From assembly GCA_964544145.1 (NCBI GenBank), contig CAZJAT010000005.1, positions 19,882 through 83,881 of the forward strand: a stretch of 64,000 nt of DNA. Reading direction: 5' to 3'. Each line of letters opens with the position of its first letter. Position 1 is the stretch's first letter. The translations under genes and the position numbers were made by a program. The stretch is from an uncultured Bacteroidales bacterium (GTDB lineage Bacteria; Hydrothermota; 32-111). Positions 58,285-61,452 of the stretch are shown here, piece by piece. The notes under the pieces are model-generated. The model saw only the letters and a list, made by a program, of their open reading frames with translations. It had not been told where the DNA came from and did no database searches.

Positions 58285-60483
58285 TTAAATCCTTGAAAGG
58301 ATATCGGGACCGCCAATATCTCCACTGCTCCAGAAAATATTCAAATTGAATTTATTTTGAGAATTATCCGTAATATATTCAATCCCGCCTCCAACATATC
58401 CAAATACACCTTTCATTTCAATGTATAATCCCGATGTGATGAGCATTAATGATGATTTAACAGATTCATTTTCCAGCAAATGCACACTATTTAAATTCCT
58501 GACCGCAACTGTTTCATTAATGGGATAAGAAAAATGCAGACCCGTTGAGAGGTAATATGATGCTAAGAGCTCACTCTCATAAATATATTTGAATGAAGGC
58601 AGTGGCTGAATGGAAAAATAATCAGATTGAATATTGGGATGGTAATCAGAAAACTGCTGAAGGTCACGTATATACCCTGCTGAAACAGTAAAAGCCGATA
58701 GCAGATTCCAAAAAATATTTATCTGAGAAATGTAATCGCCACTTAATTTAATATACAGTTTACTTATATCATAGGGAAAAAAAGTGTAGCTTTCATATTC
58801 AGGAAAATTTATTGAGAAGAGAATGTTAATTTTATATCCGGATTTGTTGTCTCTGTAATAGCCGAGATTATCTGTGATATAGTAAGAACCAAATGAAAGC
58901 TTTGAATAATCTCCAAGCATATAATTTTTGCTATTGATGGCTGTGAATAGAGACATCATAGAGTTATGCTCAAAATTATTGCCCATCAAATATATAATGG
59001 ATTGTAATGTATTGTATGTAAATGAATTATGCCAAAGGCTGTACATCTTGTATACAGAGTATTCATAATGAATATATCCGGTCACTCGTGAAATAAATAC
59101 CGGAGGAGAATATATGTTGACCTTTACTCCCTTATTATGTTCACCCAGTATTGGTATGAGATTCAAGGAAATCGCTCTTGAGAATAGATTGTTATTCTGT
59201 ATATTTGCAAAAAGGTTCATTCCAGCATTATTGCTGTAATATCCGCCAAGGCCAAATCGTGTTGTTGAAAAAGCTGTATTATTGAGTTTGATACGAAGAG
59301 TTTTTTTAACAGTATCTGCATAGAATTCTGTTTTTATATTATTGAAAATATCAAGTGATTGTAAGCGTAGAATTGCATCATCAAAATCCGCAAATGAAAA
59401 ATCATAACCTTTTTGCATGCCCAGCACATTTCTTGTGATTGTTTTATGTGTAGGATTGCTGGAATTTATCTCAATAGAATCAATAAGAAAATCATTGAAA
59501 TCAATCATATTTGCGATTTCCCTATGAGAAGATTGATAAAAAGTCTCACGCTGTATGTCATTTTTAAGTTTTCGTATATACTTAACAGTAGCATTATAGC
59601 CCAATTCTATCAGTTTGTTTACCTGATTAAATTCAAAACCCACATAATTCCCTACATCCGGGTGAATATATGTGCCATAGGGTTTAATTGTATCGGGATT
59701 GACTTGTGAGGTAATTATATCAAGCATTGAAAATCCGACTTGAACAACTGTTAGATCTTTACTTGATAGATATGTTTTATCTGAAGAGACATCAATCGCA
59801 ATGATATAATCCAAATCAAACGTATCCTTCAATATTTTTACAGGAAGATTGTTATATATACCCCCATCCATCAGTATTTTATCATTGTAATTTACAGGTT
59901 CAAAGATAACAGGCAGTGACATGGATGCCCTAATCGCTTCCTGCAATTCACCATGTGTAAAAATAGCTAATTGACCTGAATTTACATCACTCGATACACA
60001 AAGAAATGGTTTCCAGAGGTTTCTGAAATCATTGCCGACACTTGCGTTTACAGGTTGAAAGAGTTTTTGCAGCTCATAATTGAGGAATCTATCATCGATT
60101 GTTGAAGACGGCAATTTTAATGCATTATTTACAATCTTGAAATCGATCACAGGTTCATAGAAATTAAATTTATAATAAACAGGTTTATTCAATAACTCAT
60201 TATATGAAAATACTTTAATCAATATATCTGTTTTTGTAAATATACTTTCAATCTCAGAAGCAGTATAACCTGATGCCCATAATCCACCCACAATAGCTCC
60301 CATACTTGTTCCACCCACTGCATCAACAGGTATGTGGTATTCTTCCAATGCCTTTAGAACACCAATATGAGCAAGTCCTCTTGCAGCCCCCCCGCCCAAG
60401 ACCAATCCTACCCTAATCTCTTCTCCCCAAAACCCTAAACACAAAATCATTCCTACATAGAGTATAAGGCCGGGCCTTGACAT
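58285..60483 (-). CDS. Patatin-like phospholipase fused to a C-terminal Omp85/surface-antigen-type beta-barrel (PlpD-like, type Vd autotransporter architecture). The annotated start codon lies inside a REP; an alternative start is Met12 (~60450).
   Basis: GGGAARGLAHIGVL oxyanion motif, GTSMG (GxSxG) nucleophile elbow, DGG catalytic Asp motif (MDGGIYNN); ~400-aa beta-rich C-terminal region. Confidence 0.7.
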   Translation of the reverse strand: MSRPGLILYVGMILCLGFWGEEIRVGLVLGGGAARGLAHIGVLKALEEYHIPVDAVGGTSMGAIVGGLWASGYTASEIESIFTKTDILIKVFSYNELLNKPVYYKFNFYEPVIDFKIVNNALKLPSSTIDDRFLNYELQKLFQPVNASVGNDFRNLWKPFLCVSSDVNSGQLAIFTHGELQEAIRASMSLPVIFEPVNYNDKILMDGGIYNNLPVKILKDTFDLDYIIAIDVSSDKTYLSSKDLTVVQVGFSMLDIITSQVNPDTIKPYGTYIHPDVGNYVGFEFNQVNKLIELGYNATVKYIRKLKNDIQRETFYQSSHREIANMIDFNDFLIDSIEINSSNPTHKTITRNVLGMQKGYDFSFADFDDAILRLQSLDIFNNIKTEFYADTVKKTLRIKLNNTAFSTTRFGLGGYYSNNAGMNLFANIQNNNLFSRAISLNLIPILGEHNKGVKVNIYSPPVFISRVTGYIHYEYSVYKMYSLWHNSFTYNTLQSIIYLMGNNFEHNSMMSLFTAINSKNYMLGDYSKLSFGSYYITDNLGYYRDNKSGYKINILFSINFPEYESYTFFPYDISKLYIKLSGDYISQINIFWNLLSAFTVSAGYIRDLQQFSDYHPNIQSDYFSIQPLPSFKYIYESELLASYYLSTGLHFSYPINETVAVRNLNSVHLLENESVKSSLMLITSGLYIEMKGVFGYVGGGIEYITDNSQNKFNLNIFWSSGDIGGPDILSRI

Positions 60484-60492
60484 TTTGACATT
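60464..60492. repeat. REP element (AAGGCCGGGCCTTGACATTTTGACAT), left flank of the Y1 transposase gene
   Basis: GC-rich near-palindrome AAGGCCGGGCCTT plus GACATTTTGACAT; identical to the 22111-22139 copy. Confidence 0.75.
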
Positions 60493-60506
60493 TTTTAATA
60501 ATTTCC

Positions 60507-61393
60507 CTATAATAATTTACACCTTGAGTAAGTTTTTGCCAGAGCATTATACTTTATATTATAGAATGGATACGCATTTTTTATTTCCGTATATGACATC
60601 TGACAATTTTCCTTTAAGAATACCAATAGTTGATTCCTGATAATTTTGCCAGATTTTGAATTAAAATCAATATCTTTGATACTTTTTTTGATTTTCAATT
60701 CAAACATTAATATCGCTGATTGCAAGTTGATTTTCACAAAATCATTTTTTCTTTTCTTGTTTGCAACTGATATTTTTACTCGTCTGTCAAATTTTCCTGC
60801 AATGCTACTAGCATACCATTGCTCACCTATAACCTGGCCAACAGAAGTTTCTATTATGGGAATTTCGTCAAGTTTATGGTTATCAAATACAGAGTGAAAA
60901 TTCTTTTTTGTACCAAATATCTGAACAACAATTTCTGTATCCACGAATGATTGAGTACTGTTGAAATATAACGATACACTTGACCATTTATAGGCAAAGG
61001 GAGTGGTAACAATTTGTTTTCTGCATGGATTATTCATAACATAGATAATAACATTGCTCATATACTTCTCATAATGAATTATCTGTGATTTGAATCTGTT
61101 TTGGAAAACATATCCATAACCTCCTTTCCCTTTCCTATATGCAATTGCATAAAGTGTAAGAAGATCATGCATAAATTCACTTATGAAACCGTGCTCATCT
61201 TTGATTATTAGATGAAAATGATTGTCCATTATGCAAAAACCAGCAATTTGCATAAGATACTTTGATTTGCAAGTGATGAGATACTGAATGAATTTTTGTT
61301 TAAATCCATCATTTAAAAAGATGTTCTCCCCCTTGTCCCCCCTATTCATTACATGATAGTAGTGGTTTTTTAATTTGATACGCTTGTTACTCA
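60507..61393 (-). CDS. REP-associated tyrosine transposase (RAYT)/IS200-like Y1 transposase with ~150-aa C-terminal extension. Start moved to MSNKRIKL (ATG preceded by AAGGAGG); track ORF starts with TTG inside the REP at 61433.
   Basis: YYHVMNRG (cf. YHVT), HuH motif CIMDNHFHLII, catalytic-Tyr region VFQNRFKSQIIHYEKY and YVMNNPCRKQIV (cf. YIHHNPVKAGLV). Confidence 0.8.
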
Positions 61394-61426
61394 TAGTGCC
61401 TCCTTTTGTAAGATTATACAAAAGAA

Positions 61427-61452
61427 TTGTCAAAATGTCAAGGCCCGGCCTT
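61427..61452. repeat. REP element, inverted copy (right flank of the Y1 transposase gene)
   Basis: TGTCAAAATGTCAAGGCCCGGCCTT is the exact reverse complement of the left REP. Confidence 0.75.

Follow-up and report, generated by a model that had tools for sequence, protein, structure and literature searches.

Introduction

Repetitive extragenic palindromes (REPs), the doublets of them called REPINs, and the RAYT or TnpA_REP enzymes that go with them are reportedly the subject of Nunvar 2010, Bertels and Rainey 2011 and Ton-Hoang 2012. REPs are hairpins of 20–40 nt that carry a GTAG tag and are read as folded single-stranded DNA (ssDNA), and the enzyme of E. coli (TnpA_REP, YafM; structure 4er8) has about 165 amino acids. 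RAYT-like genes with flanking terminal inverted repeats (TIRs) were described by Di Nocera, De Gregorio and Rocco in 2013 (BMC Genomics 14:522, PMC3733652), who named these units TIRtrons and their products TIRYTs. Here, we analyze a gene for a Y1/HUH protein and the repeats around it within a 64,000-nt stretch of the contig CAZJAT010000005.1 (assembly GCA_964544145.1, positions 19,882 to 83,881; hereafter the window), which originates from candidate division WOR-3, a host group that was unsampled in the 2013 study. A preliminary description made from the letters of the sequence had interpreted this locus as a REPtron, in which a long RAYT gene lies between inverted REPs.

According to Di Nocera et al., TIRYTs differ from RAYTs in length and signatures, many of their TIRs share the motif GGGGWSAS, and copies of the TIRs form small families of dimers (PMC3733652). 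Quentin et al. (2018; BMC Genomics 19:475, PMC6006769) assigned such proteins to subclass 2.1 of the TnpA_Y1 enzymes, which ranks second in size among the subclasses and whose proteins belong to the longest. Its members possess a C-terminal domain resembling Bac_DnaA_C, HTH_23 or HTH_28 as well as a conserved Ser motif after the core, and they were equated with the TIRYTs (PMC6006769). Our literature search found no later functional work on TIRYTs or subclass 2.1 beyond these two studies.

We assign the locus with high confidence to the TIRtrons: it consists of a single-copy chromosomal gene, bracketed by TIRs, for a single-strand DNA nuclease-ligase core (HUH/Y1) of the RAYT/TnpA_REP type joined to a diverged helix-turn-helix (HTH) of the DnaA-domain-IV type. 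The overall evidence is probably best explained by a TIRtron with a resident two-module enzyme that mobilizes doublets of its TIRs in trans. The doublets of ~160 bp bounded by TIRs are the units that actually spread. Judged by its sequence, the element is a new, diverged WOR-3 member of a described kind, namely TIRYT/TIRtron, or TnpA_Y1 subclass 2.1 or its immediate neighborhood. The earlier suggestion of an undescribed long RAYT subgroup thus lacks support, since TIRYTs and subclass 2.1 are already in the literature; moreover, the long form is very common, with 4029 clusters (50% identity) at E ≤ 1e-30 in an exhaustive profile search, most of them of 280–330 amino acids. The locus thus defines no new category, but provides a clean example from an uncultivated phylum in which a syntenic fixed gene, TIRs that co-vary between species, dispersed ~160-bp doublets and an empty orthologous site are visible together. 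Our additions are modest and consist of the inner tandem repeats of the TIR as a candidate target of the HTH, a TIR-borne promoter, and the direct connection to a family of doublets, including an orthologous site that is empty.

A RAYT-like Y1/HUH core

The gene is located on the minus strand, where the listing of open reading frames (ORFs) gives 308 codons from a TTG (60507–61433). We took the ATG at 61394 as the likely start because an AAGGAGG motif lies 7 nt upstream and the resulting N-terminus (MSNKRIKL...; MSNKRIKLKNHYYHVMNRG) aligns with the N-termini of all full-length homologs. The gene for this TIRYT-type Y1/HUH protein accordingly spans 60507–61394 (minus strand; stop codon at 60507–60509) and encodes 295 amino acids, about twice the size of a classical RAYT, as noted before, if compared with the 165 amino acids of TnpA_REP. 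It is the only Y1 gene in the window, which has a GC content of 34%, and there is no tnpB-like neighbor in the window's ORF listing.

The catalytic core comprises amino acids 1–139 (60978–61394, minus strand). The three motifs named in the preliminary description are present, YHV as Y13-H14-V15, HUH as H59-F-H61 and the Tyr region YVMNNP as Y118...N122-P123. In the alignment of homologs, the clade shows little or no variation at the HUH motif, Y118 and N122, and the same is true for the Ser motif W137-S138-S139 after the core, both in the clade and in its A2 relatives. The Pfam family Y1_Tnp covers amino acids 9–121 with an E-value of 9e-7, above the family cut-off. The sole match in NCBIfam is REP_Tyr_transpos (NF047646, equivalog), which with 57.5 bits stays below its cut-off of 80.

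An AlphaFold (AF2) model of the 295-amino-acid protein, computed with 18 homologs as input, reached a pLDDT of 83. In a Foldseek comparison with the PDB, it came closest to E. coli TnpA_REP in complex with a REP hairpin (4er8, E = 1.7e-7), with the TnpA proteins of IS608 and ISDra2 in the next places (E about 1e-4), and the family profile aligns to 4er8 through the HUH motif and the Tyr helix. The combination of HUH and a single Tyr in a Y-x3-N-P helix on an IS200-like fold is that of the RAYTs. Motifs and model together indicate a RAYT-like Y1/HUH enzyme with catalytically intact motifs, and the Y1/RAYT-type assignment made previously can be kept. The TnpA proteins of the IS200/IS605 group (IS608, ISDra2) share the HUH/Y1 fold, but have about 130–150 amino acids, a Y-x3-Q motif, multiple copies, subterminal hairpins and often tnpB (PMC6006769), none of which applies here to a protein of 295 amino acids with Y-x3-N-P and a single gene copy in the window.

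A diverged DnaA-like domain in the C-terminal half

The C-terminal half, for which a DNA-binding or HTH module had been considered possible, yielded zero direct matches in Pfam and NCBIfam. Its relationship became visible in comparisons with the next clade out, consisting of proteins of about 315–330 amino acids, in which Pfam detects Bac_DnaA_C in 40 of 46 members. The profile of these Bac_DnaA_C-bearing relatives matches crystal and cryo-EM structures of DnaA domain IV with E-values from 2e-11 to 3e-9. When the profile of the window clade was compared with that of the relatives by hhalign, the two aligned over 295 columns at full length (E = 1.5e-70), and the last 78 amino acids matched the C-terminal region of the relatives with a probability of 97% and E = 8e-11. 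The same holds for the middle region, i.e., amino acids 140–221 (60732–60977, minus strand), which matches its counterpart with a probability of 95% and E = 2e-8; in the AF2 models, two short helices are followed by a beta hairpin and a long helix, and the region ends in a basic linker of low confidence (amino acids 203–221).

A separate model of amino acids 140–295 (pLDDT 84) has the DNA-binding domain of M. tuberculosis DnaA (3pvp) as its top Foldseek match (75 columns, root mean square deviation 2.6–2.9, E = 1.6). We conclude that the C-terminal ~75 amino acids are a diverged HTH of the DnaA-domain-IV type (amino acids 222–295; 60510–60731, minus strand), and that the HTH suggested in the preliminary description was a correct guess. 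A phmmer search against the PDB also returned the designer PPR protein 5iww (E = 1.4e-6), a spurious match that is the sum of three repeat matches, each insignificant (i-E 6–8.5).

The possibility that the C-terminal half is a separate gene joined by a frameshift was ruled out, because about 85 representative homolog clusters hold it within a single ORF of 295–306 amino acids, in frame in every full-length homolog; a hidden Markov model (HMM) built from the C-terminal half alone likewise retrieves about 85 representative clusters. The protein thus has the overall length of ~300 amino acids and the Bac_DnaA_C/HTH_23/HTH_28-related extension of TIRYTs and subclass 2.1, as seen by profile-profile comparison.

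With subclass 2.1 the protein shares the HUH/Y1 core with a RAYT-type Tyr motif, the Ser motif, the Bac_DnaA_C/HTH extension and a gene that is not multicopy. It differs from this subclass in that the HTH of the window clade lies beyond detection by Pfam, the connection being made by profile-profile comparison only. In addition, Quentin et al. did not find REP-like sequences close to subclass 2.1 genes; in the present system, by contrast, a family of scattered doublets is clearly seeded by the TIRs. E. coli TnpA_REP, although it represents the closest solved core, has no HTH, in contrast to the window protein, whose added domain belongs to a type known for binding to the DNA double strand.

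The gene is bracketed by TIRs with inner tandem repeats

On both sides, the gene is flanked by inverted copies of AAGGCCGGGCCTTGACATTTTGACA, which extend from 60466 to 60490 on its 3′ side (plus strand) and from 61428 to 61452 on its 5′ side (minus strand). The two copies are identical over 25 nt and 94% identical over 31 nt (reaching 60496 on the 3′ side), and the entire TIR-gene-TIR unit measures 987 bp. That exact inverted copies bracket the gene was seen correctly in the preliminary description, whereas the length of 26 nt and the element start at 60464 given there had to be corrected to 25 nt and 60466. In total the window contains four copies of the TIR, arranged as two inverted pairs, versus 0.00 expected from shuffled sequences. 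Each TIR combines the outer GC block AAGGCCGGGCC with the tandem direct repeat TTGACA-TT-TTGACA.

Homologous loci, numbered from L001 onward, show the same design. In the orthologous loci L002, L003 and L004, a species-specific GC block (GCCCGGGGC; AGCCCGGGYC) precedes an identical TTGACATTTTGACA, and in the 38%-identical relatives L005 and L007 the TIR reads GGGGACGGGG-TTTGACGATATGACA. The genes of these five loci are flanked by TIRs in the same manner, with about 925–951 nt between the arms. A protein-seeded scan of metagenomes yielded mostly members of the wider family and few close relatives; it was reused for a TIR survey of the 52 wider-family loci with enough flanking sequence, with TIR counts read from the listed scores. 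In about 35 of these 52 loci, the flanking inverted repeats score above shuffled controls, so that bracketing by TIRs is found in L002–L007 and in most of the wider-family loci. Typically, 30–70 nt separate the upstream arm from the start codon, and the downstream arm is located at the stop; most of these flanking repeats carry GGGGTCAGGTCT, which matches the published GGGGWSAS (PMC3733652). Other outer blocks are GGGGACGG in the clade relatives L005, L007 and L026 and GGGGTCAG in the wider family.

The window locus resembles the described TIRYT/TIRtrons in having a Y1 gene longer than that of RAYTs, TIRs in place of REP hairpins, an upstream TIR that precedes the start codon by a few tens of nt, a downstream TIR at or near the stop, and TIR copies that occur elsewhere as small dimer families. 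It differs from them in the GC-palindromic outer block of its TIR, and the inner tandem TTGACA repeats, together with their promoter role, are undescribed in the 2013 study. Inner direct repeats are not restricted to the window. Allowing a match of at least 5/6 and a period of 7–9 nt, they were found in 15 of 29 TIRs versus 1.9 ± 1.3 in shuffled sequences, a comparison that is indicative only, as the loci are not all independent. Examples with a period of about 8 nt are TCAACATT-TGACAT, GGACAATT-GACAAT, GCTCTTG-GCTCTTG and GGCTTCC-GGCTT. The window TIR therefore appears to be a variant of a family design made up of an outer GC block and inner tandem repeats, and the latter, being present across much of the family, offer a concrete and testable candidate target for the DnaA-like domain.

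Could the flanking repeats nevertheless be REPs, as proposed initially? In a classical REPtron, the GC palindrome would constitute the REP hairpin, read as folded ssDNA by the core as in E. coli TnpA_REP, and the C-terminal domain would be accessory. A 13-nt palindrome in the window repeat (AAGGCC-G-GGCCTT) does fold as ssDNA (−3.4 and −5.3 kcal/mol, z −1.9 and −2.4), and small GC palindromes of differing sequence in L002 (GCCC-G-GGGC) and L003 (AGCCCGGGCT) could be taken for compensatory change; that the protein is structurally most similar to TnpA_REP in complex with a REP hairpin also fits this idea. However, these hairpins are tiny next to REPs, shuffled sequences fold just as well as the repeats of L002 and L007 (z about 0), and the homologous outer block in relatives, GGGGACGGGG or GGGGTCAGGTCT, is non-palindromic. 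No GTAG/CGTC-type tag adjoins the window repeat, though recognition of REPs needs such a motif plus a stem or bulge, according to PMC3733652 and PMC8266576, and the score for REP_Tyr_transpos is below its cut-off. We therefore regard the REPtron as quite unlikely. The flanking repeats are not individually hairpin-forming palindromes of 20–40 nt with a conserved tag but behave as terminal inverted repeats, and the term TIRtron fits better than REPtron because single copies fold weakly, orthologous copies not at all, and the tag is absent.

Besides the flanking TIRs, extra GGGGTCAG blocks cluster beside the downstream TIR in some wider-family loci and form TIR arrays (L055 downstream of the gene, L071, L030).

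Dispersed doublets and an empty orthologous site

The second TIR pair of the window lies at 22.1 kb, where the recurrence of the repeat as a doublet had been recognized before. This non-coding inverted doublet (22110–22279) resembles miniature inverted-repeat transposable elements (MITEs) or REPINs and consists of TIRs at 22114–22138 (plus strand) and 22251–22275 (minus strand) around an interior of 112 bp. There is one mismatch between the arms, located in the second one, and the TIR is extended to 29 nt by ATCT/AGAT (ATCTAAGGCC...). The doublet fills the whole 164-bp gap between the convergent genes for an M3 peptidase and a DUF711 protein and supplies the last codon and the stop codon of the latter. 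As ssDNA it folds with −41 kcal/mol (z −8.8).

The doublet is present at this site also in the contig L106 of the same species. In a related species, whose DUF711 protein is 55% identical (L108/L109), the site is empty and the convergent genes are just 3 bp apart (L108 1189–1197). The presence/absence pattern is best explained by insertion.

For a census of doublets, we scanned species-representative genomes with a TIR pattern. The TIR was found at at least 12 loci in the WOR-3 metagenome-assembled genome (MAG) CSMAG_462 (GCA_030592285.1; L010–L024) and at four loci in a second MAG; one isolated match in an Elusimicrobiota MAG is probably due to chance. Leaving aside the gene-flanking pair and the loci truncated at contig ends, all loci are inverted doublets of ~160 bp, in some of which the second arm is degraded. 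Their interiors are conserved, and by their TIRs the doublets can be divided into two subfamilies. Among the matches in CSMAG_462, one gene-sized TIR pair stands against about 10 doublets.

The locus therefore shows the RAYT-like combination of a single-copy, vertically inherited gene, the copy count referring to the window, with a repeat dispersed as inverted doublets. In common with the RAYT/TnpA_REP system are also the location of the gene between inverted repeat copies and the ability of the doublets to form long hairpins, whereas the single repeats, in contrast to REPs, barely fold.

Two further observations concern the doublets of CSMAG_462. The Y1 gene in this MAG is flanked by TIRs of the GCCCGGGGC type, but in most of its doublets the TIRs are of the AGGCCGGGCC type, as they are around the window gene. 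This mismatch could reflect a second gene missing from the MAG, cross-mobilization, or relics. Furthermore, the most frequent doublet family has a conserved motif of ~10 nt, ATATATGATAYW, immediately external to one of its TIRs (left flank in L011, L013, L016, L017, L020, L021, L023 and L024). The similar ACATAGAGTAT flanks the 3′-side TIR of the window gene (60452–60465), and L019 has ATAGAGTATA. The motif could be a part of the element or a preferred target.

Genomic context and inheritance of the gene

Orthologs of the gene occur at the identical site in L002 and L003, which belong to two other candidate division WOR-3 genomes, with TIM-PGK-GAPDH on one side and patatin-LemA on the other. 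Among the WOR-3 species, the amino acid identity is 54–60% for the Y1 protein, 52–60% for patatin, 64–74% for PGK and 82–85% for GAPDH. The Y1 ortholog has thus diverged about as much as its neighbors, and these values indicate a resident gene with the "domesticated" pattern known from RAYTs (PMC5581495).

More distant members are found in other places. In L005/L006 (2314–4604), a 38%-identical family member with TIRs is located between queE, encoding a radical SAM protein, and queC, in an apparent operon for queuosine biosynthesis; L007 lies next to nadA, and L009 and L001 are located elsewhere. Because distant members and L001 occupy other contexts, the TIR-gene-TIR unit must have moved over longer timescales. 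Target-site duplications were seen neither at the gene element nor at the doublets.

These different locations in unrelated contexts across lineages would be accounted for if the locus were an autonomous insertion sequence, of which the whole 987-bp unit transposes and from which the doublets arose by internal deletion, as MITEs do. The compactness of the unit, with TIRs that hug the gene, and the sharing of these TIRs with the doublets would agree with such an origin. Nevertheless, we consider it very unlikely in view of the single copy in the 64-kb window, the one gene-sized pair versus about 10 doublets in CSMAG_462, and the absence of an observed target-site duplication. Also, the position is syntenically identical in three species, with a divergence about equal to that of the neighbors, which argues against an independently transposing unit and for a resident gene.

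A putative promoter within the upstream TIR

A promoter-like site is located at 61413–61441 (minus strand), in which the first TTGACA of the upstream TIR is followed after 17 nt by TATAAT, yielding 12/12 consensus positions, with AAGGAGG as Shine-Dalgarno (SD) sequence at 61399–61405. The same arrangement exists in the orthologs L001, L002 and L003, with TATACT as the −10 element. The upstream TIR is thus predicted to supply the −35 element of the gene, and one would accordingly expect the protein to regulate its own gene when bound to this TIR.

A perfect TTGACA-17-TATAAT arrangement was noticed on the 3′-side TIR as well (60485–60513, plus strand), directed into the 3′ end of the Y1 gene. 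As it is unconserved in L001, L002 and L003, we regarded this antisense promoter as incidental. Another feature of the 5′ region is the palindrome CTTTTGTA-N6-TACAAAAG at 61402–61425 (minus strand), which spans the −10 element and the 5′ untranslated region beside the SD sequence. Its RNA fold has −9.3 kcal/mol (z −2.8), with a strong counterpart in L001 (z −3.0) and weak ones in L002 and L003. By analogy to IS200, this palindrome may mask the SD sequence on read-through transcripts.

The perfect −35 element in the upstream TIR and the terminator-like hairpin formed by the TIR and its flank would also suit an element that is not mobile today. The enzyme would then be a domesticated DNA-binding or DNA-processing factor, the repeats would function as operator, promoter or terminator, and the doublets between convergent genes as bidirectional terminators or binding sites. 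The placement of the 22.1-kb doublet exactly between two convergent stop codons and the syntenic, single-copy nature of the gene are in line with this. However, the catalytic HUH and Tyr are strictly conserved, and doublet families with conserved interiors at many unrelated sites, together with the empty orthologous site, require past mobility. We therefore judge a purely regulatory role to be highly improbable. Altogether, the REP-hairpin, autonomous and purely regulatory explanations are less well supported than a TIRtron with doublets mobilized in trans.

A possible mechanism

For the TIRtron, we propose the following sequence of events. The enzyme, probably a dimer, would be anchored through its HTH to the inner half of each TIR, where the tandem direct repeats of the TTGACA type lie. 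One strand would then be nicked and rejoined by the HUH/Tyr118 center, in the outer GC block or close to it. Cleavage would probably take place when the two TIRs of a doublet pair as a long hairpin in ssDNA at the replication fork, as proposed for REPINs. In this way, the doublets would be mobilized in trans by the enzyme, and its binding to the upstream TIR, as the carrier of the −35 element, would autoregulate the gene. Taken together, these steps are tentative, and we give them somewhat less than an even chance of being correct as a whole.

Several points weigh against this interpretation or parts of it. We infer that the HTH binds the TGACA repeats, and likewise where cleavage occurs and on which strand. 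Quentin et al. pointed out that the TIR motif shows no resemblance to a DnaA box, and that target recognition might proceed without the C-terminal domain (PMC6006769). In the window clade, Bac_DnaA_C goes undetected in a direct Pfam search, and the structural match to DnaA (3pvp) is by itself non-significant at its Foldseek E-value. In the window TIR, with its AAGGCCGGGCC, the GGGGWSAS motif known from published TIRYTs is missing. Inheritance has not been strictly vertical in every case, as the surroundings differ downstream of the closest homolog (P0002 at locus L001, 62% identity), and the empty site in L108/L109 could in principle reflect a loss instead of a gain. Finally, TTGACA is the sigma-70 −35 consensus, and its conservation in the upstream TIR could be due to promoter function alone, although the downstream TIR and the doublets have conserved it just as well.

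On a larger scale, it is conceivable, but in our estimation rather doubtful, that the WOR-3/Cloacimonadota clade represents a long-persisting, vertically inherited system of enzyme plus doublets, comparable to RAYT-REPIN though based on another logic of recognition. Here, the DnaA-type HTH would read the repeats with a period of 8 bp in the double-stranded TIR, which would serve also as operator and −35 element, and would thereby position a single-strand HUH nuclease. If true, the mechanism would be a double-strand/single-strand hybrid, which no characterized Y1 transposase has been shown to use, and it would provide the first functional assignment for the DnaA-like domain of TnpA_Y1 subclass 2.1.

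Neighboring signals and gene starts

A promoter-like site for the adjacent GAPDH gene, TTGACA-16-TATAAT (61456–61483, plus strand), abuts the 5′-side TIR. The outer block of this TIR and its flank form a 10-bp hairpin followed by a T-rich run (61435–61462, plus strand), similar to a terminator.

The GC-rich TIRs also affect the prediction of genes in their vicinity. ORF calling places the starts of neighboring genes (patatin-like, QueC) within the TIR, giving rise to spurious N-termini of the type MSRPGL... and to apparent overlaps. Such false-start sites were found at 60451–60483 and 22096–22242 in the window, and at 3834 in L002, 3879 in L003 and 3918 in L005. The true start of the patatin gene is probably located further downstream (MILCLGF...). 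In practical terms, MSRPGL false starts are produced when gene callers run neighboring ORFs into these GC-rich TIRs.

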